A DNA stretch of 64,000 nt from Dehalococcoidia bacterium (GTDB lineage: Bacteria; Chloroflexota; Dehalococcoidia; Lucifugimonadales; JAGWBF01), in the NCBI GenBank assembly GCA_965207935.1, contig CBDBNM010000002.1, positions 397,692 through 461,691 of the forward strand, written 5' to 3'. Shown piece after piece: positions 5,340 to 46,361 of this stretch (positions are counted from its first letter, which is position 1; the number at the start of each line of letters is the position of its first letter). The position numbers were made by a program, and so were the translations under genes. The notes below the pieces were generated by a model. That model made no database searches and was not told the origin of the DNA. It saw only the letters and a list, made by a program, of their open reading frames with translations.

Positions 5340-5536
5340 CCCGCTCCTCCTAATGCCAGCTATCGGACTCGTCCCAGCCTATAGCCGTCCCCCAGCCCAG
5401 TCAACATCAGGCCCCGTACACCAGTCACCCTTGACCGGGAAACGGGCGCACCCTACGATGGTGTTCCGTTCCAGGCCCGGATGGGGCCGAAAAGGCGCAT
5501 GGGGGAGTCCACTGCTGCAAGAAAAAGGAGGTTGTC

Positions 5537-6454: not shown

Positions 6455-6517
6455 CGGCGGAGGGGCCTAAAGCCAGGAGAGGCTCAGGCATCACGTAAGC
6501 CGGAGCGGCGGGGTCCG

Positions 6518-6709
6518 CTATACCTGGTAGCGCTGGAGGAGCTGGCGGGCGATGACCAGGCGCTGGATCTCGTTGGTGCCCTCGCCGATGATCATCAGGG
6601 GCGCATCCCTGTAGTAGCGCTCAATGGGGTTCTCCTTGATGTACCCGTAGCCCCCGAATATGCGCATCGCCTCCAGAGTTACCTCGGCGCATATCTCGCC
6701 GGCGAACAG
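6518..6709 (-). repeat. Direct repeat copy A (192 bp) of acyl-CoA dehydrogenase 3' end
   Basis: Hand alignment with 10466..10657 has no gaps and 14 mismatches in 192 nt (about 93% identity). 13 mismatches are synonymous and 1 is Gly/Ser. Homology ends abruptly after GGCGAACAG (6701..6709). Confidence 0.9.
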
Positions 6710-6730
6710 TAGCAGGAATGCGCCTCTCAT
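6518..6730 (-). pseudogene. Displaced 3' fragment of acyl-CoA dehydrogenase (last 63 codons) with an 8-codon novel N-terminus
   Basis: The translation ...[62 protein letters not shown] is identical over 59 aa to the C-terminus of the intact gene at 10466..11626. Its ATG (6730..6728) overlaps the TAA of the 969-aa gene as TAATG. Confidence 0.85.
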
Positions 6731-9639: not shown

Positions 9640-10273
9640 GGAGACCCCTTAGTCGTTCAAATTCGCTACTGGCCGCAACGTACAGCAGCCCGTCGAGGGT
9701 TTGAAAATGCTCTTCAACGTCGAATGCTGCTATTTGACCATAGCCCGATTCGCGGATGTGGGCAAATTCAAAGAACCCTTTCTTGGTGCGCCTCCATTCC
9801 TGTACGAAATTGGAGGGGACTCGGTCTATAGACTCGTAATCTAGGAGTTCGTTGAAGAAGATTGTTTCCGATTCGTTTGCTCTCGCTCGCCCCTTCTTGT
9901 GGTCATCGATCAGATCCTTAACCGTCTGGCAAATATCATACGGAATTGTATGCCCTCCATCAGGATCGTCAGGCGTCATGAAACCTCTACCTGTCCATTC
10001 GTCCTTCCATTCGCTTTGTAGTTTGTCGACGCGCTGGGCATATTGGACTTGACTTCTTTGATTGCCCGAGATGGTCGGTCCCAGTCCGTTCATGATTTCC
10101 CTGCCAGCATGAGCAACAAATGTAATGAAACCAGGTGGTTTCCACTTCAAAAGGAACAAGGCACCTTCGTACACATCGGCGTATACTGGCAACACCAGCG
10201 TCTCCCTAAGCCAGTCTAGGACGCGTTGTTGCTCGGGCGTTAGGGCCATTTCAGAGTGAAGCAATGCTGGCAT
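9611..10273 (-). CDS. Hypothetical 220-aa protein, first gene of the islet operon
   Basis: The ORF has the same low-GC codon usage as the 969-aa gene and overlaps it by 29 nt. No recognised domain. The C-terminal RLRGLH fits only the minimal Rx4H pattern, which is weak. No obvious SD upstream; the alternative start is at 10249. Confidence 0.7.
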   Translation of the reverse strand: MPALLHSEMALTPEQQRVLDWLRETLVLPVYADVYEGALFLLKWKPPGFITFVAHAGREIMNGLGPTISGNQRSQVQYAQRVDKLQSEWKDEWTGRGFMTPDDPDGGHTIPYDICQTVKDLIDDHKKGRARANESETIFFNELLDYESIDRVPSNFVQEWRRTKKGFFEFAHIRESGYGQIAAFDVEEHFQTLDGLLYVAASSEFERLRGLHDILEEANG

Positions 10274-10465
10274 GTAAGTTCAATGTAATCAACAGTATGT
10301 TACCGCAGATTCTGGACTCCTATTCGACAATCTGCTCAAGAAACTGTAAGCCATAGGGTGGAGGACGTGGGGGAGCTCGTCGTGATCTTCGGTGTCTTTG
10401 CCTGCTTCACATATTTGCTAGGCAACAGGCAGAGCCTGCGCGCGGGCTTAGTCACCCAGGGACCT

Positions 10466-10657
10466 CTACACCTGGTAGCGCTGGAGGAGCTGGCGGGCGA
10501 TGACGAGGCGCTGGATCTCGTTGGTGCCCTCGCCGATTATCATCAGAGGCGCATCTCGGTAGTAGCGCTCGATGGGATTCTCCTTGATATATCCGTAGCC
10601 CCCGAAGATGCGCATCGCCTCCAGGGTCACCTCGGCGCATATCTCGCTGGCGAACAG
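10466..10657 (-). repeat. Direct repeat copy B (192 bp), the functional 3' end of the intact acyl-CoA dehydrogenase
   Basis: See copy A at 6518..6709. Confidence 0.9.
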
Positions 10658-11626
10658 CTTGGCCATTCCCGCTTCCAGGTCAACCCTCAGGCCCTGGTCC
10701 TTCTTCTCGGCGGCCTTGTAGGTCAGCAGGCGGGCCGCCTCTATCTTCGTCCCCATGTCCGCCAGCTTGAGCTGGATGGCTTGGTGGCGGGAGATGGGCG
10801 ACCCGAAGGTGCGCCGGCCCTGGGCGTACTTGATGGCCGCTTCGAAGGCGGCCGTGGCCACGCCGACAGCGCGGGCTGCCACGTTGATGCGACCAGTCTC
10901 CAGACCGGCCATCACCTGCTGGAAGCCCTGGCCCTCCACCCCTCCCACCAGGTTGTCGGACCCGACCCGGAAGTTGTCGAAGATCAGCTCACAGGTGTCC
11001 AAGCCCCGGTATCCCAGCTTGTCCAGGTGCCTGCCCACCTCGAAGCCTTTCCCGCCCTTCTCTACGATGAAGCAGCTTATCCCTTCGTGGGGAGGAGTGG
11101 CGTCCTTGTTGGTCTTGGTTATCAGGGCGAAGGTGTCCCCGTGCTGCCCATTGGTGATGAACATCTTGGTGCCGTTGATCAGGTACTCTTCGCCGTCGCG
11201 GGTTGCGGTCAGCTCTATGGCCTGCACATCGCTTCCGGCGTTGGGTTCGGTCAGGGCGAGCCCGCCCCGCTTTTCGCCGCGGGCCATGGCGGGCAGGAAC
11301 CGGGCCTTCTGCTCTTCGGTCCCGTAGTGGGTAACCACGTAGGTCATGATGTGATGGGTGCCGATAATGCCGCTAATGCTCATCCAGCCCTTGCACAGCT
11401 CTTCGAAGATCATGGCGAAAGTGGTGTAGTCCAGCCCCATGCCGCCGTACTCTTCGGGGATGGTTATGCCAAAGAGGCCCATCTCCTTCATCTTTTCGAC
11501 CAGCTCCAGGGGGACGATGTCGTTGCGCTCGTACTCCTGGACGATGGGCTCCACATCCCGCCGGACAAACTCTCGCACCATGTTGATGATCTGGGTGCGA
11601 GCTTCCTCAGGTGTTCTGGTTGTCAC
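10466..11626 (-). CDS. Acyl-CoA dehydrogenase (short/medium-chain type)
   Basis: ACAD hallmarks are present: GLALTEPNAGSD, the FITNG region and the C-terminal [23 protein letters not shown]. The track ORF extends to 11689. I prefer the GTG at 11626 because GAGGAGGAAGC lies 9 nt upstream and the resulting ~386 aa length is typical. Confidence 0.9.
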   Translation of the reverse strand: MTTRTPEEARTQIINMVREFVRRDVEPIVQEYERNDIVPLELVEKMKEMGLFGITIPEEYGGMGLDYTTFAMIFEELCKGWMSISGIIGTHHIMTYVVTHYGTEEQKARFLPAMARGEKRGGLALTEPNAGSDVQAIELTATRDGEEYLINGTKMFITNGQHGDTFALITKTNKDATPPHEGISCFIVEKGGKGFEVGRHLDKLGYRGLDTCELIFDNFRVGSDNLVGGVEGQGFQQVMAGLETGRINVAARAVGVATAAFEAAIKYAQGRRTFGSPISRHQAIQLKLADMGTKIEAARLLTYKAAEKKDQGLRVDLEAGMAKLFASEICAEVTLEAMRIFGGYGYIKENPIERYYRDAPLMIIGEGTNEIQRLVIARQLLQRYQV

Positions 11627-11793
11627 CAAGAGCTTCCTCCTCGATAACGGTGACCGTGATGCAGCTATTCTAGCGAGGGAGGCTGGCAAAGGTCTAGGTT
11701 CCGGGCCTCTACTTCAATTGCTCTCCAGCAAGCAGTCCGAATATAATTGGCCTAAGTTAGACCCTAGAGTTTACTGGCCCGGCCTTCTACGCT

Positions 11794-12583: not shown

Positions 12584-13777
12584 ATGGCGGGAGTCCTGCA
12601 GGACAAGAACATCGTCCTGGGTGTTACGGGGAGCATCGCCTGCTACAAGGCCCTGGACCTGGCCAGCAAACTCACCCAGGCAGGGGCCGGCGTGGACACC
12701 ATCATGAGCTACGGGGCAACCCAGTTCATCGCCCCCCTCGCCTTCCGCAGCCTCACCCACCGGCCCGTGACAGTCGATATCTTCGACCCGGACTCGGAGC
12801 TGAGCATCGAGCACGTTCAGCTAGCCGGGAGGGCGGACATTGTCGTCGTGGCCCCGGCCACCGCCCACTTCATTGCCAAGGTGGCTTACGGATTTGCCGA
12901 CGACCCCCTGACCACCACCATCCTGGCCACCCAGGCGCCCGTGCTTATCGCCCCTGCCATGGACGGGCACATGTACGAAAACCAGGCCACCCAGGACAAC
13001 ATCGAGAAGCTGAAGGCCAGGGGGATCACTTTCGTAGGTCCGGCCAGCGGGCACCTGGCCTCGGGACTTGTGGGCATGGGTCGGTTGGTGGAAGTCCCCC
13101 AGCTTATGGGGCACATTAGCGCCCTGCTGGGGAAAGACGGGGACCTGGCCGGACGCACCATAGTCGTCAGCGCAGGGGGCACCCAGGAGGCCATCGACCC
13201 CGTCCGGGTGATCACCAACCACTCGTCGGGAAAGATGGGCTACGCCCTGGCTGAGGCAGCCCGGGACCGGGGCGCCAGGGTGGTGCTCGTTTCGGCCCCA
13301 ACCGGCTTGGACGACCCGGCGGCGCTGGAGGTGGTGAAGGTACGCTCAGCCGTCGAGATGCGGGATGCTGTGCTGGCGGCGGTCAAAGGCGCCGACGCGC
13401 TGATAATGGCGGCGGCGGTGGCCGACTACCAGCCCGCCGACGTTGCAGGTCAGAAGATCAAGAAGGACAGCTCGGCATTGACCATCGACCTTGAAAGGAC
13501 GCCGGACATCCTCCAGGAGGCCCAGGGCAGCTTCCTCAGGATCGGCTTCGCTGCCGAGACCGAGGATCTGCTGGCGAACGCCAGGGACAAGCTGGAGCAC
13601 AAGGCCCTGGACCTGATCGTAGCCAACGATGTGTCCGCAGAGGGGTCGGGGTTCGGCGCCGATACCAATAAGGTCACCCTTGTCGGCAAGTCCGGGGAGG
13701 CGGAAGACCTGCCCCTGATGTCCAAGCAGGATGTGGCCCACCGCGTCCTGGACCGCGTAAAGGCGCTCCTGGGCTAG
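12584..13777 (+). CDS. coaBC: Bifunctional phosphopantothenoylcysteine decarboxylase / phosphopantothenate-cysteine ligase
   Basis: 397 aa with GVTGSIACYKALDL flavoprotein N-domain and ITNHSSGKMG and AAVADY ligase motifs. The start is 1 nt after the coaX stop. Confidence 0.9.
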   Translation: MAGVLQDKNIVLGVTGSIACYKALDLASKLTQAGAGVDTIMSYGATQFIAPLAFRSLTHRPVTVDIFDPDSELSIEHVQLAGRADIVVVAPATAHFIAKVAYGFADDPLTTTILATQAPVLIAPAMDGHMYENQATQDNIEKLKARGITFVGPASGHLASGLVGMGRLVEVPQLMGHISALLGKDGDLAGRTIVVSAGGTQEAIDPVRVITNHSSGKMGYALAEAARDRGARVVLVSAPTGLDDPAALEVVKVRSAVEMRDAVLAAVKGADALIMAAAVADYQPADVAGQKIKKDSSALTIDLERTPDILQEAQGSFLRIGFAAETEDLLANARDKLEHKALDLIVANDVSAEGSGFGADTNKVTLVGKSGEAEDLPLMSKQDVAHRVLDRVKALLG

Positions 13778-13939
13778 CTTAGCCCCGTGGGTTGGGGGAT
13801 GGACAAAGGGCGATTGTGCGTTGGGTGGTCAGGAAGGTAGCATGGTCCACGGGAGTGCACTAGCAGCGAAACAAACTTTCCCCCAGATTCGCCTGACTGG
13901 CAAATGCCCGATGGGTTGATCTGAGGAAGGTGATCCTTT

Positions 13940-15433
13940 ATGGCGGATCCCAACTTTGCCGACAAGACTATCTGGACCGGGGACAACCTGGACATCCTGC
14001 GGGGGATGAACTCGGAGTGCGTTGACCTAATCTACCTTGACCCTCCCTTCAACTCCAACCAGGACTACGCTGCGCCGGTAGGCAGCAAGGCAGCTGGCGC
14101 CGCTTTCAAGGACACCTGGACACTCTCAGATCTAGATGTCGCCTGGATGGGCCTGATCGCCGACGAGCAGCCCGCCTTAGCCCATGTGGTCAAGACAGCA
14201 GGCCTGACCCATGGCAAGGGAATGCAGAGCTACTTGACCATGATGGCTATCCGGCTGATGGAGATGCACAGGGCCTTGAAGCCAACCGGCAGCATTTATC
14301 TCCACTGCGATCCGACAGCCAGCCACTACCTTAAGATGCTGATGGATGCGGTGTTCGGTGTCGAGAACTTTAGAAATGAGATAATCTGGCGAAATACCGG
14401 GGCACACAATTTCGCTGACCGCTTCGGCCCAATCCATCAAGATATTCTGTTCTACGCGAAATCGAACCAATACAAACATAGAGCCATATATGGACCATAT
14501 TTGAAAGGCCATGTCGAAACTTACTTCAAGAAACAGGACGAACATGGCCGGTACTGGACTAACTCAATCCACGGTTCGGGAACTCGAAACGGCATGAGCG
14601 GTGAACCATGGCGAGGGTATGACCCTACCCCGTTTGGTCGCCATTGGGCCGTTCCGAGCGCATTAGTTTTGGCTTTTGGGATTGATCCTGACCTATCACA
14701 ACATGAAAAATTGGACGCTCTCTATGATTTGGGTCTAATCGACCTACCGGAGACGACAGGGCAAAGTTTGCCGACATACCGACAATATCTAGACAGGAGT
14801 TCGGGCCAGCTTTTGCAAGACATTTGGGCATTTCAGCCGCATACTAGGGACTGTCTGTATGGGACGGAGGCGAGTATTGATGAGGATGTATGCTGGATCT
14901 CCCCTAGAGATAAGAAGGAACGCACTGGCTACCCAACACAGAAACCATTGGGCTTGCTGGAACGTATCATCCTAGCCTCCTCCGACGAGGGAGACCTGGT
15001 GCTCGACCCGTTTTGTGGCTGCGCCACAGCCTGCGTAGCTGCCGATAAGTTGGGGCGCAAGTGGGTTGGAATTGATATTTCCCCCAAGGCTGCAGAGCTG
15101 GTTAACCTACGGCTTCGGCAGGAGATGGGTAGCCTATTTCATCACGGATATGTGACTGCGCGTTCAGACATTCCCCAGCGCACGGATATTGAGAAGCCCA
15201 AGCCTTACAGGGAAAATAAGCATGTCCTCTTCGGCGAGCAAGAGGGTTTCTGTGCCGGTTGCAAGGGGGATTTTCCATTCCGCAATTTCACCGTCGACCA
15301 CATCGTCCCCAAGTCAAGAGGCGGGACGGATCACGTCGAGAACCTTCAGCTCCTTTGCATGGCATGCAATTCTCTGAAGGGGGACCGGCCCATGGAGTAT
15401 CTGATGGCGCAGTTGGCTGAGGCGAAACCCTAA
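13940..15433 (+). CDS. DNA methyltransferase (N6-adenine/N4-cytosine, beta-class order) fused to a C-terminal HNH endonuclease domain
   Basis: Motif IV IYLDPPFNS is near the N-terminus, and motif I LVLDPFCGCATACVAADKLGRKWVGIDIS lies at about residue 360. The HNH module is FCAGCKGDF...FTVDHIVPKSRGGTDHVENLQLLCMACNSLKGD. GGAAGGTGA RBS upstream. Confidence 0.85.
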   Translation: MADPNFADKTIWTGDNLDILRGMNSECVDLIYLDPPFNSNQDYAAPVGSKAAGAAFKDTWTLSDLDVAWMGLIADEQPALAHVVKTAGLTHGKGMQSYLTMMAIRLMEMHRALKPTGSIYLHCDPTASHYLKMLMDAVFGVENFRNEIIWRNTGAHNFADRFGPIHQDILFYAKSNQYKHRAIYGPYLKGHVETYFKKQDEHGRYWTNSIHGSGTRNGMSGEPWRGYDPTPFGRHWAVPSALVLAFGIDPDLSQHEKLDALYDLGLIDLPETTGQSLPTYRQYLDRSSGQLLQDIWAFQPHTRDCLYGTEASIDEDVCWISPRDKKERTGYPTQKPLGLLERIILASSDEGDLVLDPFCGCATACVAADKLGRKWVGIDISPKAAELVNLRLRQEMGSLFHHGYVTARSDIPQRTDIEKPKPYRENKHVLFGEQEGFCAGCKGDFPFRNFTVDHIVPKSRGGTDHVENLQLLCMACNSLKGDRPMEYLMAQLAEAKP

Positions 15434-15459
15434 ATGTTGCGGCGGATAAGACGAGCTAT

Positions 15460-15479
15460 GCGTGCCAGAAGAGGCACGC
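15460..15479 (+). terminator. Hairpin GCGTGCC-AGAAGA-GGCACGC downstream of the methyltransferase gene
   Basis: 7-bp GC-rich stem 27 nt after the stop codon. No U-tract. Confidence 0.3.
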
Positions 15480-15585
15480 GAAATCTGGGGCATGGCCATG
15501 TTTCGCAAGCAAAGGCCGCGGTCCGAGCATTTTCACAGGGTAAGTCAAAACCGAAAAGTGGCCAGGGCAAGAGGAAACGTCGCCA

Positions 15586-16044
15586 ATGAACTTCCGATCG
15601 AACCCTGACGGCAGCAGAACCATGACCGTAAGCGAAAGTGAGAGTCAAGCATACCTTCTCTTGGGACTATTGGCATCGCTAGCCGGCCGCAGAGAATTGA
15701 TGGACGAACTAAAGAACGGGAATAAGTCCCTCGACGATCGCATAGCTGGCGGGATGACGGGATGGAACGCAGGTGAAATTCCCTCAGATGAGATGTCAAG
15801 AATGGAGGCTTTCAGACACGCCCTTGTCCACGGGCTCTGCATAGTAGCCGAAGACGGGGGCATCTTCATTTCCGATGAGAAGTATGGCGAGGACGACTCA
15901 CGAAGTCACTTATCATTGTCCCTTGTCGAGCTCCAAGAAATGGCGGGCGCGTGGGTAGAATGGTTGGCACCGCCGATCGTTATTGATCGTTATATGGCCG
16001 CAGGACACCCGCACCCCATCCAGGTGTCCATAACCCCGAAGTAA
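15586..16044 (+). CDS. Hypothetical 152-aa protein (orphan)
   Basis: ORF with AGAGGAAAC upstream and no recognised motif. Its codon usage resembles the neighbouring methyltransferase gene. Confidence 0.45.
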   Translation: MNFRSNPDGSRTMTVSESESQAYLLLGLLASLAGRRELMDELKNGNKSLDDRIAGGMTGWNAGEIPSDEMSRMEAFRHALVHGLCIVAEDGGIFISDEKYGEDDSRSHLSLSLVELQEMAGAWVEWLAPPIVIDRYMAAGHPHPIQVSITPK

Positions 16045-16089
16045 GCCGATTTCAAGGGCGAGCCCAACACATAGGGGCTACATCGGCAA

Positions 16090-16326
16090 GTGAGGATCGA
16101 ACCTGTGTCAGCAGTGGATGGACACCTCGGCGAGTTTGAACCTGTCGTCGACGGAATGGAGGAGCCAATGACCGAGGAATATCGAAAATTTGACCCAGCG
16201 GACTACATCAAGACCACGAAAGATGTCCAGGGGCTCCTCGATGCCTCTGCGGATGAGGACCCTGGGGACGGGGTCGTGATTCGAGCTGTGTTGAAGTACA
16301 TCGCCCAAAGACACCGTTCGTCTTGA
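16090..16326 (+). pseudogene. Truncated HigA-like addiction-module antidote protein (N-terminal half only, HTH missing)
   Basis: KFDPADYIKTTKDVQGLLDASADEDPGDGVVIRAVLKYIAQRHR matches the pattern wD-a-eyL...i..YL.aaled.Dp..i..AL.diArArG of COG3636/TIGR02684-type antitoxins (from memory). It stops where the helix-turn-helix should begin. There is no RelE/HigB-like partner upstream. Confidence 0.5.
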
Positions 16327-16383
16327 GTAATACCTGGGAACTTATCATCCATTAGATGCGTCTAAGAACTTAGGGAGGGCGCA

Positions 16384-17334
16384 ATGAAACGACTCACGAT
16401 TATCTTCGCAGTTCTGCTGGCCATCATCCTGGCAGCCTGCCAAAACCCGACGCCAACCCCGACGCTGGCGCCGACATCCACACCGACACCCACCCCCACG
16501 GCGGTACCACCGACGCCGACCGCCACCCCTGCACCTACGGCGACGCCCACCATCAGCCCAGGAACCGCTGCCTACAATGCCTTCTTGGAGATGCTTGAGG
16601 AGGCCCCTGCTGACTTGCGCGCTGAGACCAAAGCCTGCTTGATGGACCTCTTCGAGGAGGACCCATCTGTGGCTGAGTCGTTCACCACGGGGGAGGACCT
16701 GAGCGGGCCGGCGATGCTCAGCTTTCTGGCCTGCCTGACGCCCGAGGAGGCCGCAGCGCTGACGCCTCCCGGTGAAGGCCCTCCGCCGGATGTTGCCGGC
16801 TTGGCCTGTCTGGCCGAGAAGCTTGAGGGCGCCCCCGAGAAAGACCGTATCCTCGCCGTCCTCTCAGGCGCCGACCCATCGGGGGAAGGGCTGACGCTGG
16901 AGGAAAGCGCGGTGCTTGGTGGGGCTGTGGAAGCCTGTGACCTCGATACCGGTTTCACCTTCCCTGGAGGAGAGGGCGCCGAAGAGAATCCGTTGGCCGG
17001 TACAGAGTGGAGGCTGGTCCTCGTGCTGGGCAGCGCCCTCCCTCCCACCGGGGTGGTGGGGGGCGACCCAACCGCCGAGTTTACAGCCATGGATATGATG
17101 GGATGGACAGGCTGCAACTCCTACGGCGCCAGATACAGCATACAAGGAGAGGAACTGCTCCTTGACAACCTGGCGTGGACGGATGCGGGCTGCCCGTCTC
17201 AGGAGCTAACCCAGCAGGAACAGCGGATGCAGGACTCGCTGGCGACGGTGGAGGAGTTCGAGATTTCAGGGGACCAACTTACGCTTCACAGCGAAGGCGG
17301 CGAGGCGCTGGTCTTCGAGCGAATCAGGCAGTAG
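16384..17334 (+). CDS. Lipoprotein with Pro/Thr-rich linker and C-terminal META (HslJ-like) domain
   Basis: Signal peptide with lipobox LAAC (MKRLTIIFAVLLAIILAAC), then a PTPTPT low-complexity linker. The C-terminus reads LAGTEWRLV...GCNSYGARYSIQGEELLLDNLAWTDAGCP, which is typical of META domains. Confidence 0.75.
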   Translation: MKRLTIIFAVLLAIILAACQNPTPTPTLAPTSTPTPTPTAVPPTPTATPAPTATPTISPGTAAYNAFLEMLEEAPADLRAETKACLMDLFEEDPSVAESFTTGEDLSGPAMLSFLACLTPEEAAALTPPGEGPPPDVAGLACLAEKLEGAPEKDRILAVLSGADPSGEGLTLEESAVLGGAVEACDLDTGFTFPGGEGAEENPLAGTEWRLVLVLGSALPPTGVVGGDPTAEFTAMDMMGWTGCNSYGARYSIQGEELLLDNLAWTDAGCPSQELTQQEQRMQDSLATVEEFEISGDQLTLHSEGGEALVFERIRQ

Positions 17335-17420
17335 TCGCAAGAGTCTCTGGGGTAGAGGGCCAGAGGCAAAGGCCCGTCGCGCGGACCGGGATCTGAGATG
17401 GAAGGCGCTGCTGGGCTAGC

Positions 17421-18878
17421 TCAGCCTCGCAGGTTGGGGTGGCGGGCAGCCTTGGCTTCGTCCAGGCGGGTGACCGGGGTGGTGTGGGGAGCGCCGGTCA
17501 CCATCTCCGGGTCCTCTGCAACTTCCCTGTCGATGGCCTTCATCACATCGATGAAAGCATCCAGGGTCTCCTTGCTCTCGGCCTCGGTGGGCTCGATCAT
17601 CAGGGCTTCTTCGACGATGAGGGGGAAGTACATGGTGGGGGAGTGGAACCCGTAGTCCAGCAGCCTCTTGGCGATGTCCAGGCCCTTGACGCCCTTGGCC
17701 CGCTGGTCCTTGGACGAAAGTATGACCTCATGCATGCACCGGCGGTCGTAGGGTAGGTGATAGGTGTCCTTCAGAGCTTCCAGCAGGTAGTTGGCGTTGA
17801 TCACCGCATCGCCGCTGATCTGCTCCAGCCCCGATGCCCCCAAGCTCCTTATGTAGGTGTAGGCCCGCACCAGCACGCCGAAGTTGCCGTGGAACCCACC
17901 TACACGTCCGATGCTATCGGGGGGAGACTCCAGGGAGTACGCATCTGAGCCGTTCTCTCCGTTCTTGACCACGATGGGCGACGGCAGATAGGGCAGCAGG
18001 GTGTCCGAGACGCATACCGGCCCTGCGCCCGGCCCGCCTCCACCGTGGGGGGTGGAGAAGGTCTTGTGAAGGTTGAGGTGGACAACGTCGAACCCCATGT
18101 GCCCCAGCTTGGCGCGACCAAGGAGGGCGTTCATGTTTGCGCCGTCGCCGTACACCAGCCCACCGGCCCGGTGCACCATGTCGCAGAGATCGACGATGTT
18201 GCTGTTGAACAACCCCAGGGTGTTGGGCTGGGTTATCATCACCCCGGCCAGCCTGTCCGATGCCAGCTCGGCCATCCGGTCCAGGTCTATGTTGCCCCTG
18301 TCGTTGGACGGCACGCTGACGACCTCGAAACCGGACATCGCGGCGGAAGCCGGGTTAGTGCCGTGGGCGCTGTCGGGTATGGCCACCACGGTGCGCCCAT
18401 CGTCGCCCCGCTGCTTATGGTATGCCCGGATCATCAGCATGCCGCACAGCTCACCCTGGGCGCCCGCCAGGGGAGCGAGGCTGGTTCCCTTCATGCCGGT
18501 GATCTCCGCCAGGTAACCCTGAAGCATGTACATCAGCTGCAGGCTACCCTGGGCCTGAGCGTCGGTCTGGCGGGGATGGGAAGCTGCGAAGCCGGGCATG
18601 AATGCCATCTCTTCGTTCAGCTTGGGGTTGTACTTCATGGTGCAACTGCCCAAGGGGTAGAAGTTGGTGTCTATGGAGTAGTTCAGGCGGCTCAGGTTGG
18701 TGAAGTAGCGCACCAGCTCCGGTTCGCTGAGCTCAGGAAGGGGCAGGTCGTCCCTGAGCATCTGCTCTGAAAGGAGGGGCTGCTCAGGAACATCCAGGTC
18801 GGGAAGGTTGGCGCCTACCCTGCCCGGAGTGCTCCTTTGCATCAAAGTGCGCCTGTCGAAGGAGGGCAGCGCGCTCAT
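17421..18878 (-). CDS. gcvPB: Glycine dehydrogenase (decarboxylating) subunit 2
   Basis: 485 aa with FYPLGSCTMKYNP and the PLP-Lys context HLNLHKTFSTPHGGGGPG. Confidence 0.92.
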   Translation of the reverse strand: MSALPSFDRRTLMQRSTPGRVGANLPDLDVPEQPLLSEQMLRDDLPLPELSEPELVRYFTNLSRLNYSIDTNFYPLGSCTMKYNPKLNEEMAFMPGFAASHPRQTDAQAQGSLQLMYMLQGYLAEITGMKGTSLAPLAGAQGELCGMLMIRAYHKQRGDDGRTVVAIPDSAHGTNPASAAMSGFEVVSVPSNDRGNIDLDRMAELASDRLAGVMITQPNTLGLFNSNIVDLCDMVHRAGGLVYGDGANMNALLGRAKLGHMGFDVVHLNLHKTFSTPHGGGGPGAGPVCVSDTLLPYLPSPIVVKNGENGSDAYSLESPPDSIGRVGGFHGNFGVLVRAYTYIRSLGASGLEQISGDAVINANYLLEALKDTYHLPYDRRCMHEVILSSKDQRAKGVKGLDIAKRLLDYGFHSPTMYFPLIVEEALMIEPTEAESKETLDAFIDVMKAIDREVAEDPEMVTGAPHTTPVTRLDEAKAARHPNLRG

Positions 18879-39263: not shown

Positions 39264-41627
39264 CTAGCTCCCCGTCACCTGCACAGGGTCCTCGTGCTCT
39301 GTGCCTATTGGGAAGGCGGTAACGATTCCTTCGAACTTAGAGACTCTGATGTTGCGTCCCGTGGGGGTTACGCGCACCTGGGTGGATGCCCACGCCGAAG
39401 ACCCGGTGTCGGGGTCGGTCTGCTGGGGGCTGAGCAGGGACAGGATGTTTCCTCCCCGGACCTCACCATCCCTTGTGGCATACTCGATGCCGGGCAGATG
39501 GCCCTGCCCCACAGGTATCCCAACAACATCGGGTGGAATGGCCGGATGAGGGTATACCACAGCCTCGATATCGCCCTCGGTGGAGACTATGCTTACCACA
39601 TCCCCTTCCTGTAGGCCCATCTGCCTGGCACGGTGGGCATTGATCTCGACCCACGTCTGCCAGGTCACGGTCGTCAGGGGATCGGGCGCTGCTTGGAGCC
39701 AGGGAATGTGCGCTCCCCTGCCGTCCAGGATCGAGTTGTGCAGGAAGGGCACCAGGTGGAATATGTTTCCACCCGCAGGGCCATGGTAACGTGGCCGAGA
39801 GTGCTGCTCGGCGATCCGCCTCAGGTCCGGCGGTGCAGGAGCGTCGGCCCCCGCCGTGGCTTCCCTGTCTTCCCAGCCGCCCCGCTCCAAGAGCATATTC
39901 CAGAAGGCAGGGAATGTGAGGGCGCCGGGTTGGTCTTCTCCATCCTTCAGCAAGGGCGAGCCTCTGCCCGTATCGTACAGCCTCTGGGCAGCATCCCGGA
40001 GCACGCCGTAGAAAGTGTCGGGCAGGCCATCATCCAGGCCCAGGTCCCCCGATAGCGCCAGGAGCAGGTCCGGGAAGCTGCGAGGGTCGAGGTCGGGCAG
40101 GGGGTTCACTACCGGCTGCTGGAATCCGACCGTCTGGAAACCCGGGCCGGGCTCGGGAACATCATCCCCCCAGTCTTCCAAGGCTGACCGCACCGGGAGG
40201 ACCAGGTCCGCCCGCTGAGCTGTATCGTCCATAAAGCTGGAGAAGCTCACTACCAAGGTGTTGTCCGGCGCGCTGTCCAGCGCGTTGGCAAAACCGGTGC
40301 TGCTGGGCAGGTTGTACGCCGGGTTGGCCCCGCAGACCATCAGCGCCTGAAGCTGGCCTCCACGCAGGTTAGAGGCAACTTCGCCCCAATCATCCATGCT
40401 GCCTATCGGGTATGCCAACTCCAGCTCTTCCAGCGGAGGGGCCGGATTGAACACGACCCCGCCGTCTCCAATGCCTCCTCCTACGCTGCCGGCCAAGTAG
40501 TTGAGGAGGTACACGGCTGCCATGCTGGAGGGGCCGTTGGTGTGGGCAGACGCTTCACCACCGCCGATGGCCAGCGGCGCGCTGGAGTGGGCAAACTCCG
40601 CTGCGATTCTCTCGATCATGTGGGCCGCCGTTTCGCCTCGTATGGACTCGGGTACACCCACATACCAGGGGTTGGACGGATCGACGATATGCTCAGCGCT
40701 GAAGGGGTCAAGGGCTGCCAACAGGTCGTCCCGGGTGGCGCCTCCCGCCATGCCGGCGGCTGTATCGCCGTCAGGTCCGGCGATGATTGCGTGGGCCATG
40801 CCCAGGGCTACGACTCCCTCCATGCCGGTCCTGACAGGTATCCACTCGTCGGCGCTGGCGGCCGTAGCGGAGTAGCGAGCTCCTATGTGCACGAAGAAAC
40901 CTCGAACGCCCCCGTGTTCATGGGACCGAAAATTCCCGAATCCCCGGGAGAGCTGAACTGGCGAGAGCCAGGTGGAGAGGAAATCGGCGCCAAAGGAGAG
41001 CAGGTAGGTGGAGTTCTCCAGGTCGAAGCTGGGAAGGTCCTTCTGGCCGAACAGGTTGGCGGAGGTGGACCTCAGGACTGAATCGCCCATAATGTCCAGC
41101 CCCAGGTAGCGCCCGCCGTAGGCGGATGCGAACCGGTCCACCACCACTGCCTGGTGGCCTCGCATGGGGGCTGTGATCATCATCGTAGCGGAGCTGTTGC
41201 CGGAAGTCCTAATGCCTCCAAGCCTGCCGGCTATAGTGTTCATCGCCTCATCCCAGGAGATGGGGGCGTAGGCGCCCTCCCTCCTGTTGCCGCTCCTTCT
41301 CATTGGCCCGGAGAGGCGGTCAGGATGGTACAGGGACTGGAGGGCCCCATCGCAGCGCACGCTCTGCTTGCCTGCGTTTGTGCGGTACAGGGGATTCCCC
41401 CTGACCTTCTTGGCTCGGCCCTCCATCACACGGACGAGGATTCCCTCCCTCTCGGGGCACCCGCCGCACAGGGTGGCATACCAGGTGTCCCGTCCCCTGA
41501 CCAAGTCCTCGGGGATATCGACGGGGCTCTGTATCTGCATCTCGCTGTCGGGGAACACGTTGCACGCAACGGCGCCCAGCGCCGAGATGCCCGCCCATTT
41601 CAGGAAGTTTCTGCGTGTTACCTTCAT
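39264..41627 (-). CDS. Molybdopterin-oxidoreductase-like large subunit with Tat signal (ActB1-like)
   Basis: The Tat motif MKVTRRNFLKWAGISALGAVA starts at ATG 41627, 7 nt after the ActA stop. The body has DMSO-reductase-superfamily architecture. The track start at 41678 is probably too far upstream. Confidence 0.75.
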   Translation of the reverse strand: MKVTRRNFLKWAGISALGAVACNVFPDSEMQIQSPVDIPEDLVRGRDTWYATLCGGCPEREGILVRVMEGRAKKVRGNPLYRTNAGKQSVRCDGALQSLYHPDRLSGPMRRSGNRREGAYAPISWDEAMNTIAGRLGGIRTSGNSSATMMITAPMRGHQAVVVDRFASAYGGRYLGLDIMGDSVLRSTSANLFGQKDLPSFDLENSTYLLSFGADFLSTWLSPVQLSRGFGNFRSHEHGGVRGFFVHIGARYSATAASADEWIPVRTGMEGVVALGMAHAIIAGPDGDTAAGMAGGATRDDLLAALDPFSAEHIVDPSNPWYVGVPESIRGETAAHMIERIAAEFAHSSAPLAIGGGEASAHTNGPSSMAAVYLLNYLAGSVGGGIGDGGVVFNPAPPLEELELAYPIGSMDDWGEVASNLRGGQLQALMVCGANPAYNLPSSTGFANALDSAPDNTLVVSFSSFMDDTAQRADLVLPVRSALEDWGDDVPEPGPGFQTVGFQQPVVNPLPDLDPRSFPDLLLALSGDLGLDDGLPDTFYGVLRDAAQRLYDTGRGSPLLKDGEDQPGALTFPAFWNMLLERGGWEDREATAGADAPAPPDLRRIAEQHSRPRYHGPAGGNIFHLVPFLHNSILDGRGAHIPWLQAAPDPLTTVTWQTWVEINAHRARQMGLQEGDVVSIVSTEGDIEAVVYPHPAIPPDVVGIPVGQGHLPGIEYATRDGEVRGGNILSLLSPQQTDPDTGSSAWASTQVRVTPTGRNIRVSKFEGIVTAFPIGTEHEDPVQVTGS

Positions 41628-41634
41628 TGGTCCT

Positions 41635-42276
41635 CTAGTAGTGACAGGTGGTGCAATCGGTGGGGGCATCGTAATCACGATGGCAGTCCACGCAATCGCC
41701 CATCTTCAAGCTCCGTTCCTGTTTGATCTTGGTCATCTCCCGCACATCGCCGTGACACATGGTGCACACCTGTTCCACTGGCGATATCCCGTTCGCCTCA
41801 GCAGCGTCGATCACACTCTGCTTCTGACTGAAGAATCTTACGTGGGGTTCGTGGGCGAACTGCACATGGTCGGGGATGCGGTGCACCTTCTCCCAATCGA
41901 TAGGCTGGGGTGTGGCCCCAGGCACGATCACCCCCGAACTATCCCTCCCCGCGTACTCCAGCAGTTTAGCGATCTCAACGTTGGACTCGCCGGTGACGGT
42001 GGTATGGCAGATGAGGCACTGCTCCACCGCAGGAACGGTGGCTGATTCGCCGGTTACGACGTTCCGGTGGCAGAACTCGCAGGCGATGCCTTCGTCATCG
42101 ACGTGGATGTCGTGGGGAAAGGCGATGGGCTGGTCGGGGCCGCCTGCACCGAATCCGAATAGTGGTGTGGACCACCACGCCGTCAGAACGTAAATGAGCA
42201 CGAACAGCATGATGCCGGCTGACGCCAGTCCTCCCAGGGCCAGGGGCACTATTCCTATTCGAGGCAGCCTTGGCAT
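41635..42276 (-). CDS. Membrane-anchored pentaheme cytochrome c (ActA-like)
   Basis: Five CxxCH motifs (CEFCH, CLICH, CTMCH, CVDCH, CTTCH) and an N-terminal TM. Confidence 0.85.
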   Translation of the reverse strand: MPRLPRIGIVPLALGGLASAGIMLFVLIYVLTAWWSTPLFGFGAGGPDQPIAFPHDIHVDDEGIACEFCHRNVVTGESATVPAVEQCLICHTTVTGESNVEIAKLLEYAGRDSSGVIVPGATPQPIDWEKVHRIPDHVQFAHEPHVRFFSQKQSVIDAAEANGISPVEQVCTMCHGDVREMTKIKQERSLKMGDCVDCHRDYDAPTDCTTCHY

Positions 42277-42391
42277 CAGGAGATGTCCATCACCCTTCGA
42301 ACAACGATATTTTCTCTGCGGATCGGTTTCAAACTAGTCCGCCTTAGGAACGCAGAGCAGGCCGGCGCCCGGTGGAGCGCGCAAGGCCTGC

Positions 42392-42691
42392 TCATATCCA
42401 GAACCTGTTGTACACAGCCTCCAGCAGCTGGGTGTTTCGCACCGTCAGCACCATGAAAAACACCGCCAAGCCTATAAGCCCGATGACTCCCAGGTACATG
42501 GGGCGGCGCAGCATAAGGAACTTTGACGGCAGGTGTCCCGAGGCGACCAGGGATGGGATGACAGCGTGGGCGGTGACGAAGGTGAAAGCTATAAGTACGA
42601 TGCAGAAAAAATAGGCCCACAACCAGTGGAGCCAATTTCCGATATCCGACCAGTGGCCCGCATCGACTATGGCCGGGTCTACTTCGGGCAT
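42392..42691 (-). CDS. Small hydrophobic protein (2-3 TM) upstream of ActA
   Basis: 99 aa with clear TM segments (WLWAYFFCIVLIAFTFVTAHAVIPSL, LGVIGLIGLAVFFMVL). The overlapping 164-aa ORF 42276..42770 is Arg/Pro-rich and looks non-coding. Confidence 0.5.
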   Translation of the reverse strand: MPEVDPAIVDAGHWSDIGNWLHWLWAYFFCIVLIAFTFVTAHAVIPSLVASGHLPSKFLMLRRPMYLGVIGLIGLAVFFMVLTVRNTQLLEAVYNRFWI

Positions 42692-42805
42692 GGGTGCCTT
42701 CCACCTCCCTCACACCAGCTACAGGCAAGGTTCGACCCTGCCGGGGGCTGAAGCAAGTGAAAATTATCACACTGCCAAAGGGGTGTCAAGGGAAGTTGAA
42801 CGTCG

Positions 42806-42834
42806 TTGACCTGCATGTTCATGCCCATTAGAAT
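42806..42834 (+). promoter_or_regulatory. Near-consensus promoter TTGACC-N17-TAGAAT
   Basis: -35 at 42806..42811, a 17-nt spacer and -10 at 42829..42834, upstream of the small Tat-signal ORF. Confidence 0.55.
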
Positions 42835-42893
42835 AGCCAGGATTCAGGGTGGAGGCTAACTCCTACCCCAAGCTGGCAGCAAAGGGAGAACCA

Positions 42894-43112
42894 ATGGCCG
42901 ACGAACAAAAGGCAACCGGGGGCTATTCCAGGAGAAGTGTGCTGGGGACGATGCTGCTCGGCGGGTTGGCTGTCTTGAGCGCGGTGCCTCTGCTAAAGGG
43001 CTTCCTTCAGCAGGAAGAGTCCCCCGAGGAAAACGGCGGAGAGTTCCCGCCCGAGGGCTCCATCTTCCACCCCAGCCAGGACCCCACGACAGACCCTCGC
43101 AGAAGCGCCTAA
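42894..43112 (+). CDS. Small (72-aa) protein with twin-arginine-like signal and no mature domain
   Basis: ATG 42894 is preceded by AAGGGAGA. The sequence is MADEQKATGGYSRRSVLGTMLLGGLAVLSAVPLL followed by an acidic Pro-rich tail. The track start at 42849 (GTG) lies too close to the predicted promoter. Confidence 0.5.
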   Translation: MADEQKATGGYSRRSVLGTMLLGGLAVLSAVPLLKGFLQQEESPEENGGEFPPEGSIFHPSQDPTTDPRRSA

Positions 43113-43143
43113 AGGTCCCGACCTCTCCCCCCGTCTGCCCACC

Positions 43144-43273
43144 CTACTTCCTGCGCCCGAACTCCCGTTCCAGGTGGTAGGAGCTAAGGTGGATCATGGT
43201 GGGCCTGCCGTGGGGGCAGGTGTGGGGGCTGCCGCACTCCCTTAGCTGCCTTACCTGACCCTCCATTTGCTCC
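43144..43273 (-). pseudogene. Displaced 3' fragment of mutL (last 42 codons plus stop); direct repeat copy A
   Basis: It translates to EQMEGQVRQLRECGSPHTCPHGRPTMIHLSSYHLEREFGRRK*, against EQMEGLVRQLRECDSPHTCPHGRPTMIHLSSYHLEREFGRRK* in the intact mutL. There are 9 mismatches in 130 nt (7 synonymous) and no gaps. Confidence 0.85.
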
Positions 43274-43282
43274 ACGCAATTC

Positions 43283-43501
43283 TTACAAGACCCGTTGTAT
43301 TAGAATCAATGCCCGCGCTGCGTTCGGACCTGGCTTCCATATCCTTTCCGTGGGCCAGAGATTCTCTATTGTCTCGGCGACGTTGCCTCCTAGCGTGAAG
43401 TCGCCCTCTGAGAGGGAATCCTCGTTATCGAGCACGTCGTTGGCAAGGGCCTTCGCCTCGACCATGTAGTGCTGACCTAACAGGGCCGGCAGGACTGCCA
43501 T
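43283..43501 (-). CDS. Hypothetical small protein (72 aa from ATG 43501)
   Basis: MAVLPALLGQHYMVEAKALANDVLDNEDSLSEGDFTLGGNVAETIENLWPTERIWKPGPNAARALILIQRVL. The longer track ORF (to 43732) would run through the divergent promoter region. There is no recognised domain, and coding status is uncertain. Confidence 0.35.
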   Translation of the reverse strand: MAVLPALLGQHYMVEAKALANDVLDNEDSLSEGDFTLGGNVAETIENLWPTERIWKPGPNAARALILIQRVL

Positions 43502-43551
43502 CACCAGGACGCCGGCGAACTTGCCGGACCGTAGGGGGCCTGCACATTCCC

Positions 43552-43586
43552 TGTCAAAGGGTGTTCGGCGGCCGAACAAGTTGACA
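43552..43586. promoter_or_regulatory. Divergent promoter/operator: TGTCAA-N4-[TGTTCGGC-G-GCCGAACA]-N2-TTGACA
   Basis: Two inverted -35-like hexamers (43552..43557 and 43581..43586) flank a 17-bp perfect palindrome (43562..43578). An extended -10 TGATAGAAT (43607..43615) ends 7 nt before ATG 43623, which suggests a leaderless or very short-leader transcript. Confidence 0.45.
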
Positions 43587-43622
43587 GAAGATGCCTTGGC
43601 CGAAATTGATAGAATCGGGAAC

Positions 43623-44723
43623 ATGAGCGTATTGAAGTTCTTTGCCAGATACCGCTGGGAACTGCTGCTGTTCCTCGGGATTCCGGCCGCCTCCTGGTTT
43701 GCAGGGCTCTTGGTGCTGGCGCTTAGCGACATTTACGATCTCTATTGGTTCAGCAACGCCGATGCTGAGTTCGTACAGTGGTGCGTCAGAATTGCTGTTT
43801 CAACGGCGCTGCTGGGCGCTTCGTATCTCTATGTGCGTCGTCAGGAGCGCTGGTTTCTGCCACTCATATGGCGCTACCTACTGGCATTTAAGGTCTTCAC
43901 AGTGCCTCTCATAGTCATCTGGGCAGTGTGGCTCTCAGATTTCGCGGTTTCAGGGATATCGGGATTGGTCTGGGCAATCGGCATATGGCTGGTCGGGGTT
44001 GCCCTGCTCTTGCCCGTCGAGCTGTGGTTTGCGCGGCAGGCATCGCGATCCAGCATTGCGCACGCGTTCTTCCTGGTGCTGGTTAGCGGGCTGGTCGCTG
44101 GAGGAGGAAACCCAGCGGAAAGCTTCTTTAGAATATGGGTAGAGGAGCTAGGCAGTAGTAGGGCTGCTGGGGGAATGGTGTTGGCTTTGGCATCATTTAC
44201 CCTCTCCATTGCCGCAGGTTTGCTTGGCGTGTGGTTGCTTGGCAACTTCGAACGTCGCGGGCCGGTGTTCCGCAGACGCACCATCTACGGGATGCTGGCC
44301 TTCGAAGGCTACCAATGGTTGCATCCTGGGTTGGTAGTGATGGCCGTTTTCGGATGGTCTGCCCTCACTCACCTTGACGAGTGGGGTCTCTGGTTGTTCT
44401 CTTTCCTCGTTCCCTTTTGGGGCATCCGTGGCGGGAATCGCCCTTACACTGGCGTTGGTGTACCTTGTGCGGGTGCGGCACCCGTTGCCGCACGGCGAGA
44501 AGGTGTAACGCGTTACGTCTCTTCCCCTAGGGAAAAGCACACAGACCGTCGGCGTTGGCCACTGAGCTGCACCTGTAGCTTCGATGGCGAGGAAGTCTTT
44601 CCGAATGCCCGCACTCCCAGCCTACTTCCTGCGGCCGAACTCCCGTTCCAGGTGGTAAGAGCTGAGGTGGATCATCGTCGGCCTGCCATGGGGGCAGGTG
44701 TGGGGGCTGTCACACTCCCTTAG
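43623..44723 (+). CDS. Hypothetical multipass membrane protein, probably frameshifted near 44413..44422 (true end likely TAA 44506..44508)
   Basis: From ATG 43623 the product is strongly hydrophobic (about 8 TM) up to ...WGLWLFSFLVPFWG. After the CCCTTTTGGGG run the listed frame turns Arg/Pro-rich and reads antisense into mutL. The +1 frame instead gives a clean TM helix, ASVAGIALTLALVYLVRVRHPLPHGEKV*. Confidence 0.55.
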   Translation: MSVLKFFARYRWELLLFLGIPAASWFAGLLVLALSDIYDLYWFSNADAEFVQWCVRIAVSTALLGASYLYVRRQERWFLPLIWRYLLAFKVFTVPLIVIWAVWLSDFAVSGISGLVWAIGIWLVGVALLLPVELWFARQASRSSIAHAFFLVLVSGLVAGGGNPAESFFRIWVEELGSSRAAGGMVLALASFTLSIAAGLLGVWLLGNFERRGPVFRRRTIYGMLAFEGYQWLHPGLVVMAVFGWSALTHLDEWGLWLFSFLVPFWGIRGGNRPYTGVGVPCAGAAPVAARREGVTRYVSSPREKHTDRRRWPLSCTCSFDGEEVFPNARTPSLLPAAELPFQVVRAEVDHRRPAMGAGVGAVTLP

Positions 44724-44751
44724 CTGCCTTACCAGACCCTCCATTTGCTCC
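44622..44751 (-). repeat. Direct repeat copy B (130 bp), the functional 3' end of mutL
   Basis: See 43144..43273. Homology ends after the shared GACCCTCCATTTGCTCC. Confidence 0.9.
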
Positions 44752-46361
44752 TCGTTCATAGCCATCCCCGCCCTTATTGCGCTGTGGCAGGCTATGGATG
44801 CTGCCATAGCATCGTTTCGCTCCCGGAGCACACCTTCGTAAGACATCATGTCCAGGACTTCTAGGAGGGCCTTGGCAGGGTCCGTAGTAGCGGCGATTCC
44901 CGGTATCCCCCGCACCAAGTAGGTGCGTTCTCCGAAAGGCTCAAGCAGGTAGCCGTAGCTCTCCAGCAGGTCCAAGTTTGCTTGAAGCAGCTCCTCCTGC
45001 TCGGGGGCCAGCTCCACGGACACCGGCTGGAGCAGGGCCTGCACCTGGGTGTCTCGCTCCGCCACTTCCCGGGATACCCGCTCATAGAGCACCCTCTCAT
45101 GGGCGGCGTGCTGATCGATGAGAAGCATGCCCTCAGGGCCCTCGGCAACCAGGTAGGTGTACTTCACCTGGCCGATGATGCGGAGGGACGACATCCCCTC
45201 CAGGGGAGTCGGATTGACGCCGACACTGGGGGCCGCCGGTTCCGTCTCGGTGTAGGGGTTCCCTCCGCCCGACCTGGGGGAAGGCCAGGACAGAATAGGG
45301 CCCGCTTGCGGGGCCGGAGGGGCCGCCGAGGGGATATTCAGCTCCGGCACGGGGGCTACCGCTACCAGGGTGCCTCGGACAGCCCTCTGGACGCAGCCAA
45401 ACACCCGGTCGTCCTGCCGGAAGCGCACCTCCCGCTTGGCCGGATGGACGTTCACATCCACCTCTCCCGGAGGGACCGAGATGTTCAGGACAGCGACGGG
45501 GTGCCGGCGCTCCGGGAGGAATCCGTGGTAGGTCTCCGACAGGGCAGCGGAGAGCAGGGGACTCTGTATCCACCGGCGGTTCAGCAGGAAGGTGATGTAG
45601 GTGCGGTTCGACTTGTGAAGGGACGGCGCGTTCACGTAGCCGGACACCTTGTACCCATCGCCCGCCCCTTCCCACACTACCTCCAACATGGAGGCGGTGG
45701 CCTCAGCCCCGTACACCGAGACCAGGGCGTCGTTCAGGGCGCCGCTGCCTCCGGTGGTAAGGACGTTGCGACCGTCCACCTGCAGGCGAAAGGCCACCTC
45801 GGGGAAAGCCAGGGCGAACCGGGATAAAAGGTCGCTGATCCTCCCGGCCTCCGCAGATGGGGACCGGAGGAACTTTCGCCTGGCGGGCAGGTTCTCGAAC
45901 AGCCTCTCCACAGTCACGGAGGTGCCGGCGGGACAACCGACGGAGCGGAGGGTCTTCTCCTCTCCCCAGTCCACCTGCACCTCCCGGCCCACATCGATGT
46001 CCTTCTCGCGGCTGACCAGCTTGACCATGGCGACCGATGCGATGCTGGGCAGTGCCTCGCCCCGGAAGCCCATCGTCATTATCCGGTCGAGGTCGTCTGA
46101 GGAGCTGATCTTGCTGGTGGCGTGGCGCTGGAAGGCCAGCGTGACCTCCTCGGCTGGAATCCCTGAACCGTTGTCCACCACCCGGAGGAGGTCTATTCCT
46201 CCGCCCTTCACCTCGATGGTTACCTGGGAAGCGCCGGCATCCAGGGAGTTTTCGACAAGCTCCTTGACCACCGACGAGGGTCGTTCTATCACCTCACCAG
46301 CGGCGATCTTGGAAGCTAGGTCCGGTTCCAGCAGATGGATCATCGCCCCATCCCCACCCAT
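44622..46361 (-). CDS. mutL: DNA mismatch repair protein MutL
   Basis: 579 aa with the GHKL ATPase N-terminus IAAGEVIERPSSVVKELVENSLDAG and RGEALPSI. The C-terminal endonuclease-type domain carries the CPHGRP motif. Confidence 0.92.
   Translation of the reverse strand: MGGDGAMIHLLEPDLASKIAAGEVIERPSSVVKELVENSLDAGASQVTIEVKGGGIDLLRVVDNGSGIPAEEVTLAFQRHATSKISSSDDLDRIMTMGFRGEALPSIASVAMVKLVSREKDIDVGREVQVDWGEEKTLRSVGCPAGTSVTVERLFENLPARRKFLRSPSAEAGRISDLLSRFALAFPEVAFRLQVDGRNVLTTGGSGALNDALVSVYGAEATASMLEVVWEGAGDGYKVSGYVNAPSLHKSNRTYITFLLNRRWIQSPLLSAALSETYHGFLPERRHPVAVLNISVPPGEVDVNVHPAKREVRFRQDDRVFGCVQRAVRGTLVAVAPVPELNIPSAAPPAPQAGPILSWPSPRSGGGNPYTETEPAAPSVGVNPTPLEGMSSLRIIGQVKYTYLVAEGPEGMLLIDQHAAHERVLYERVSREVAERDTQVQALLQPVSVELAPEQEELLQANLDLLESYGYLLEPFGERTYLVRGIPGIAATTDPAKALLEVLDMMSYEGVLRERNDAMAASIACHSAIRAGMAMNEEQMEGLVRQLRECDSPHTCPHGRPTMIHLSSYHLEREFGRRK

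Follow-up and report, generated by a model that had tools for sequence, protein, structure and literature searches.

Replacement of a gene's 3' end by inserted DNA is an architecture already known from prophage e14 and phage 21 in the icd gene of Escherichia coli, where the element-borne 3' end completes the gene and the native one persists at the far junction as the orphan icdC (PMC13626634). Here we describe an islet with this same arrangement at the 3' end of mutL, in a 64,000-nt stretch of DNA (the window) from an uncultured Dehalococcoidia bacterium (Chloroflexota; contig CBDBNM010000002.1, positions 397,692 to 461,691). The unusual part is that the islet contains no recombinase. In many genomes of bacteria and archaea, small variable islets, often with defence genes, lie between conserved genes without any mobile-element enzyme, and their route of arrival is a long-standing loose end. 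In the mutL islet, the displaced gene end serves as a readable insertion scar, and an identical copy in a second host confirms both the unit and its boundaries.

The likeness to e14 is close. In strain MG1655 we measured the icd/icdC repeat at 166 nt and 92.8% identity; it starts at the crossover point and stops directly behind the stop codon. However, e14 is a 15-kb element with its own intE and xisE genes, whereas the mutL islet and a second islet of the window, at an acyl-CoA dehydrogenase (ACAD) gene, span only 1.5 and 3.9 kb, and no recombinase was found in either.

Elements without a recombinase of their own have been described in other bacteria. The cis-mobilizable elements (CIMEs) of streptococci can accumulate in tandem through accretion, and a related element can mobilize them (PMC5704250). 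The mutL islet resembles them in being flanked by putative attachment (att) repeats and in that no integration or transfer genes were found in it. In the model of Rhs C-terminal displacement, which is a model only, an incoming 3' segment carrying a piece of the conserved gene recombines and the old end is shunted downstream, where it is silent; arrays build up, and the process involves circular intermediates and no dedicated recombinase (PMC2935791). Lastly, genomic island H47 of E. coli is described as small and mobile, with short direct repeats and without its own site-specific recombinase, so that the host must supply the function; its excision is reported as independent of RecA and of known site-specific recombinases (PMC5426353). 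Unlike those of the mutL islet, the short repeats of H47 do not derive from duplication of a gene end.

A displaced mutL end bounds the islet

Self-BLAST of the window returned a pair of direct repeats (E = 9e-52) at 43138-43276 (copy A) and 44616-44754 (copy B), both on the minus strand, which align without gaps over 139 nt with 11 mismatches (92.1% identity). An earlier note on this DNA had reported 130 nt of duplicated mutL sequence with nine mismatches, two of them non-synonymous; this count stands for the coding part, and the full repeat is slightly longer, with homology extending 6-9 nt beyond the stop codon. Intact mutL (44622-46361, minus strand) encodes 579 aa with the Pfam domains MutL_C, DNA_mis_repair and HATPase_c_3. 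Copy B provides its last 43 codons and completes the gene, as an islet-borne replacement of the mutL 3' end. Copy A stands alone, 1,478 nt downstream of copy B; it consists of the last 130 nt of mutL, the stop codon and 6 nt more, and represents the displaced native end, now a decaying pseudogene fragment. The alignment agrees with the note in that copy B completes mutL, copy A is an orphan and both encode the MutL C-terminus with the CPHGRP motif, here extended to TCPHGRP. Both non-synonymous changes (L to Q and D to G) lie in the orphan and occur in no intact mutL examined; all of these, copy B included, encode the consensus C-terminus.

The repeat closes, at its gene-internal edge, with an identical block of 17 nt, GACCCTCCATTTGCTCC, at 43260-43276 and 44738-44754. 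A run of this length would have no significance of its own in a repeat of 92% identity (0.92^17, or ~0.24).

Relatives of the host were found by a MutL protein search (85-93% aa identity, on contigs of 0.36-2.6 Mb), and five loci were compared. Scans of genome and metagenome contigs with MutL gave, among the matches listed, only relatives of at most 51% identity. In the protein collection the source genome is represented by a contig of 1,657,441 nt; the exact MutL sequence of the window has no entry, probably owing to a different called start. The five relatives are colinear with the window on both sides of the mutL site, at 80-89% nucleotide identity, and all are without the insert. Two of them, L163 and L164, are clean empty sites: their sole break relative to the window is the absence of 43277-44615, accompanied by a single mutL end. 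At the empty sites the mutL stop codon lies ~30 nt from the stop codon of a convergent gene of 72 aa. Copy A runs on into this native downstream flank, as known from L163 and L164, and copy B departs from the native downstream sequence 9 nt past the stop codon.

The same islet in a second lineage

A homologue of the membrane protein encoded in the islet led to L172, a 3,978-nt low-coverage long-read contig from sample ERZ25069412, which spans both repeats and both flanks and is colinear with window positions 41433-45406. From 43259 to 44765 the window and L172 differ by no substitution and by only two single-base homopolymer indels, and the ends of this tract coincide with the repeat edges; outside it, on either side, every 100 nt contain 10-20 differences. 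With its start 18 nt into copy A and its end at most 12 nt from the inner end of copy B, the tract takes in the whole cargo and the whole of copy B. Elsewhere in our window-relative comparisons, mismatch-free runs of at least 150 nt amounted to two of ~170 nt in ~190 kb. In its flanks, L172 has 88.6% and 84.4% identity to the window, versus 92.2% and 86.7% to the islet-free L164, indicating that the presence of the islet does not track host relationship.

The two copies of the mutL end have different histories. Between the window and L172, the B copies show 0 differences in 130 nt and the A copies 7 in 130, the A copies having host-type states in common. In L172 itself, copies A and B are free of substitutions over the first 60 nt and have 10 in the last 70 nt. 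Additionally, both copies in both genomes read GCAAATGG where every islet-free relative reads GCAGATGG. A diverged version of the islet (84-86% identity) is present in L173, a Logan short-read contig of 1,617 nt, in which the orphan starts at the same inner boundary. The orphan is decaying in each case, with the two non-synonymous changes in the window, a +1 frameshift in L172 and an S to I change in L173.

These comparisons establish that the cargo and copy B form a discrete foreign unit, recently and horizontally shared between two species-level lineages. By the same evidence, copy B is foreign and travels with the islet, and copy A is the displaced host end. The question raised earlier of which mutL copy is foreign is thus answered. 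The insert is also polymorphic, with a site that is empty in relatives and an identical islet in a lineage whose flanks are 11-16% diverged.

Islets at two further loci

The earlier note had also seen an islet with the same geometry at the ACAD gene, which our alignments bear out with a repeat of 199 nt and 92.0% identity (6511-6709 and 10459-10657). The copy at 10459-10657 (minus strand) completes the intact ACAD gene (10466-11689), and the orphan 3' end at 6511-6709 (minus strand) is contiguous with a native neighbour of the SGL family (SMP-30/gluconolactonase-like), as at the empty sites L168, L169 and L171. The ACAD/SGL-family junction is empty in these three genomes, whereas L166 and L167 have different cargo there that is not bounded by repeats. 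Distances to relatives were tried as a means of identifying the foreign ACAD copy and rejected, as either copy shows 11-12 differences in 192 nt.

The ACAD cargo (6710-10458, minus strand) encodes proteins of 969 and 220 aa. The larger (6730-9639, minus strand) matches Dsr1, a defence protein, over the C-terminal region of the latter (PADLOC, 2e-12) and has no recognised N-terminal effector domain; it forms a singleton cluster at 90% identity among 15 billion proteins. The gene for the 220-aa protein (9611-10273, minus strand), which has no assigned family, lies upstream of the 969-aa gene and overlaps it. Two otherwise unrelated islets at the ACAD site have in common a 52-nt stretch of 88% identity (window 10358-10409 and L166 12318-12369), which on the strand opposite to ACAD would encode the start of a hydrophobic peptide (VEDVGELVVIFGVFACF).

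Self-BLAST of the window revealed a third repeat pair, not counted in the earlier note, at the junction of the convergent genes coaBC and gcvP2. A 38-nt segment over their stop codons (13760-13797) recurs at 17402-17439 with 87% identity. The 3.6-kb insert between them (13798-17401) contains a gene for a 497-aa DNA methylase-HNH endonuclease fusion (13940-15433), open reading frames (ORFs) of 152 and 78 aa and a META-domain gene (16384-17334). Duplications of the same junction occur in L168/L169, over 50 nt (92%), and in L170, over 92 nt (81.5%). In L166, four junction copies (79-89%) at 3415-3545, 5445-5591, 6849-7031 and 7698-7847 bound three tandem islets, whose cargo comprises an HI1420/Gp49 toxin-antitoxin pair, a META-domain gene and a GmrSD_N (GmrSD-like) gene. 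The coaBC/gcvP2 islets thus duplicate segments of unequal extent. Two of the copies in L166 include the last ~60 nt of a 152-aa cargo gene, indicating that the duplicated segment took in DNA inserted earlier.

Recurrence at the 3' ends of conserved genes, which had been suggested from two cases, is therefore upheld by this third window locus and the four-copy array. Much of the cargo looks like defence genes. No recombinase domain was detected in domain searches of ~10 islets at the three loci in seven genomes. The suggestion of a single cassette family, conversely, finds no backing in sequence, as the cargos of the different islets have nothing in common. Likewise, the junction cores put forward as specific sites have no statistical support, and the three target boundaries show no shared motif or 8-mer and no dyad symmetry.

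Mechanism of insertion

We consider it very probable that a discrete mobile unit was inserted in the 3' end of mutL by a single crossover. This unit is 1,478 bp long, made up of the cargo (43277-44615) and copy B (44616-44754), and the islet thus brings a handle of its own, a copy of the final 130 nt of mutL. The structure and the positions of the tract ends agree with one reciprocal crossover, in which a putative circular form of the islet would have recombined with the chromosomal mutL 3' end in a Campbell-type insertion; the islet-borne end now completes mutL, and the resident end was pushed downstream as the decaying orphan, copy A. The essential target gene is never broken, since the handle extends past its stop codon.

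For the enzyme system, we slightly favour host general homologous recombination over an integrase supplied in trans. The crossover would take place on the 139-nt handle, as proposed for Rhs C-terminal displacement, and excision would follow from recombination between copies A and B. To the full account, including host homologous recombination with a circular intermediate, we assign a probability of roughly 0.45. The likeness to Rhs lies in an intact gene accompanied by displaced 3' fragments, as single orphans at mutL and ACAD and as the four-copy coaBC/gcvP2 array of L166. The two systems differ in their payload: in Rhs the incoming end is a different toxin tip (with an immunity gene) and is itself the payload, whereas copy B is a near-synonymous consensus MutL end and the payload follows the stop codon.

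Homologous recombination is favoured because no recombinase domain occurs in the islets of the three loci, because the three targets share neither an 8-mer nor dyad symmetry, and because the coaBC/gcvP2 duplications vary in extent, some being nested with earlier inserts. A further reason is the A/B mosaic of L172, which has its breakpoint deep in the repeat, within the longest identity block, and looks like the trace of a crossover or conversion well within the repeat. We rejected the position of this mosaic as a discriminator between site-specific and homologous recombination, as the first 60 nt offer only a single informative site (position 41). The longest identity blocks between handle and host lie at the inner edge, where a fixed core would also lie.

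Several points weigh against this account. The geometry is exactly that made by an integrase, as exemplified by the icd/icdC repeat of e14, which in our alignment likewise ends right after the stop codon. A 139-nt handle of 92% identity, with perfect blocks of at most 40 nt, is a poor substrate for RecA, and the 38-nt repeat of the third locus is a poorer one. Selection acting only on the coding sequence would leave homology that ends a few bases past the stop codon, and a handle selected for homology need not stop there. The mosaic in L172 could stem from later gene conversion between copies A and B. Finally, only part of each genome was inspected, and a recombinase encoded elsewhere is possible.

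The strongest alternative, which we hold to be a serious if somewhat less probable candidate, is that the islet is a decayed, CIME-like integrative element that kept its attL and attR sites and lost its integrase. A tyrosine or serine recombinase from elsewhere would act on it, either in trans or after tandem accretion with an integrase-bearing element, the core would lie at the inner edge within GGAGCAAATGGAGGGTC, and the rest of the repeat would only restore mutL, as with e14 and phage 21 in icd. The e14 signature is indeed the same, down to an identical block at the inner edge and homology that ends at the stop codon, and both CIMEs and their mobilization by accretion are documented (PMC5704250). 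A relic reading frame in the islet (see below) suggests decay from a larger element. Moreover, the B copies are pure and identical and the A copies become host-like from near the inner edge, and the presence of GCAAATGG in both copies of the window and L172, as opposed to GCAGATGG in islet-free relatives, would fit a requirement for identity in the overlap.

On the other hand, no recombinase domain was found in the islets at the three loci or in the window ORFs tested. CIMEs are defined against integrase-bearing elements that share their site, and none was found at the three islet sites; for the mutL site, no integrase-bearing occupant was present in the eight loci examined, a small sample, among the matches listed, or in the viral collection. 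Three targets without a common motif or dyad would call for several integrases in genomes of 1.7-2.6 Mb, and the boundaries of the coaBC/gcvP2 islets differ from one another. The tandem array of L166 repeats long host-derived segments, unlike the short core of CIME arrays. In a test for a short core, the 17-nt identical block fell inside the transferred tract and was insignificant at the identity of the repeat, and copy A of L172 was islet-like for 60 nt; these first 60 nt would demand an extra conversion event if an integrase had acted. Both an integrase in trans and homologous recombination predict excision between A and B and a 1,478-nt circle.

It is improbable that the structure goes back to one illegitimate event in an ancestor, for instance homology-facilitated illegitimate recombination of linear DNA from a relative with the cargo downstream of its mutL, followed by vertical descent or by spread through double crossovers in the flanks. 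One homologous anchor in mutL and one illegitimate joint would yield the observed structure, and most other variable inserts in these genomes are without flanking repeats, so that gain by routes that are not site-specific is common. However, vertical descent predicts ~10% divergence between the islets of the window and L172, and none is seen. Spread by flank homology predicts tracts that extend variably into the flanks, yet both ends of the identical tract lie at repeat edges and the joint between cargo and copy A is inside it. Furthermore, the nearest genome to the L172 host is one without the islet, and the recurrence of this geometry at two or three loci would require one coincidence after another.

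Two other explanations are very unlikely. A false duplication from stitched strain variants of the mutL end is conceivable in a metagenome-assembled contig such as the one containing the window, since such assemblies can be strain chimeras, but the same architecture recurs in three independent assemblies from different samples (the window, long-read L172 and short-read L173) and the insert is 1.3 kb of unique DNA with homologues elsewhere, bounded by copies with distinct evolutionary histories, so that the mutL islet is no artefact of assembly. Direct repeats of target sequence around the insert would also be left by a transposon-like element whose long target-site duplication had since accumulated mutations, but there are no transposase and no terminal inverted repeats, and a new duplication starts out identical. 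Here the cargo is 100% identical between the two hosts, whereas A and B are 8% diverged and copy A is not the same in both hosts; hence the divergence of A and B predates the insertion, and a diverged target-site duplication is excluded unless L172 is chimeric.

Nor does the islet fit two further classes. Compared with transposons and insertion sequences, the mutL repeat is long (139 nt) and its copies are of different origin; compared with integrative mobile elements exploiting Xer (IMEXs), which use host Xer at dif, the repeat is coding sequence and its boundary is without dyad symmetry. We tentatively propose that small Dehalococcoidia islets of this kind may form a mobile class without a recombinase of its own, in which a circle would insert by host recombination through a homology handle derived from the 3' end of a conserved housekeeping gene, at that gene in any genome sufficiently related, across species-level boundaries; the handle would be a spare gene end that makes insertion harmless, and stacked insertions would leave trails of orphan ends. 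Were host recombination to suffice, orphan 3' gene ends would be a simple genome-wide marker of such events, and searches based on integrases would miss a class of mobile DNA. If instead an integrase acts in trans, these islets would be the smallest decayed integrative elements with demonstrated ongoing movement in a streamlined lineage that is uncultured.

Cargo of the mutL islet

The 1,339-nt cargo (43277-44615), absent from the five relatives, has a G+C content of 0.54-0.59, versus 0.60-0.70 in the flanks. The sole recognisable cargo gene (43623-44508, plus strand) encodes a polytopic membrane protein of ~294 aa with no assigned family, for which a search of a collection of 5.8 billion proteins gave only seven homologues. 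In the window this gene has one extra T at ~44412-44415 that shifts the frame, and the C-termini of the homologues match the +1 frame; the gene in L172 is without the extra T but has an extra G at window position 44087 (position 2660 of L172). These two different single-base homopolymer indels may be sequencing errors or independent, very recent inactivations. An AlphaFold2 model of the protein is all-helical, with moderate confidence (pLDDT 68.5), and had no fold match in the PDB at E < 1. On an unrelated contig (L174, 3156-5639), three tandem paralogues of the membrane protein lie downstream of genes for an EamA transporter and an NAD-binding dehydrogenase; no mutL fragment occurs near these paralogues.

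The earlier note had placed the end of the leftmost cargo gene close to the junction. A minus-strand ORF of 149 aa (43283-43732) does end 7 nt from copy A, but it was rejected as a live gene: it is conserved at the DNA level in L173, where its counterpart has an in-frame stop. It is probably, judging from these alignments, the relic of a decayed gene, of which a remnant reading frame corresponding to the C-terminal part persists at 43283-43498 (minus strand), with no family match and no similarity to recombinases.

The statement that the insert lacks a recombinase was corroborated by searches of Pfam, PADLOC, PHROGs and NCBIfam, which assigned the cargo ORFs to no family and found neither a recombinase nor a transfer gene. 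An Rfam search of 42700-45000 gave no match, and scans of the islet found no consensus promoter or terminator and no terminal inverted repeats. The only direct repeat near the ends of the islet is a 12-nt match (43308-43319 and 44604-44615), which we regard as a probable product of chance. In viral contigs, scans found no match to the DNA motif of the mutL end, to the membrane protein of the cargo or to the 969-aa protein of the ACAD islet.

A separate hotspot beyond mutL

The native convergent neighbour of mutL (42849-43112 in the window, plus strand) encodes a small protein that bears a twin-arginine signal and has a called length of 72 aa in the relatives. In three of these (L161, L162 and L165), the spacer between this gene and a gene of 99 aa, one gene beyond mutL, is a separate hotspot with unrelated cargo, and its inserts have no flanking repeats of at least 30 nt. 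The spacer holds genes for an MzaB-like ATPase, a helicase and an SspD-like protein in L161 (12000-18400), three unknown genes in L162 (12000-16000) and the gene for a 513-aa HNH_3 protein in L165 (12000-14200). At the edge of the insert in L162 (12067-12614), a G+C-rich unit of ~250 nt (CCCCCCTCCCTTGAGGGGAGGGGATAAAGGGGAGGGTGACACCCC...) is repeated in tandem, in two to three copies that may be a miniature repeat element.

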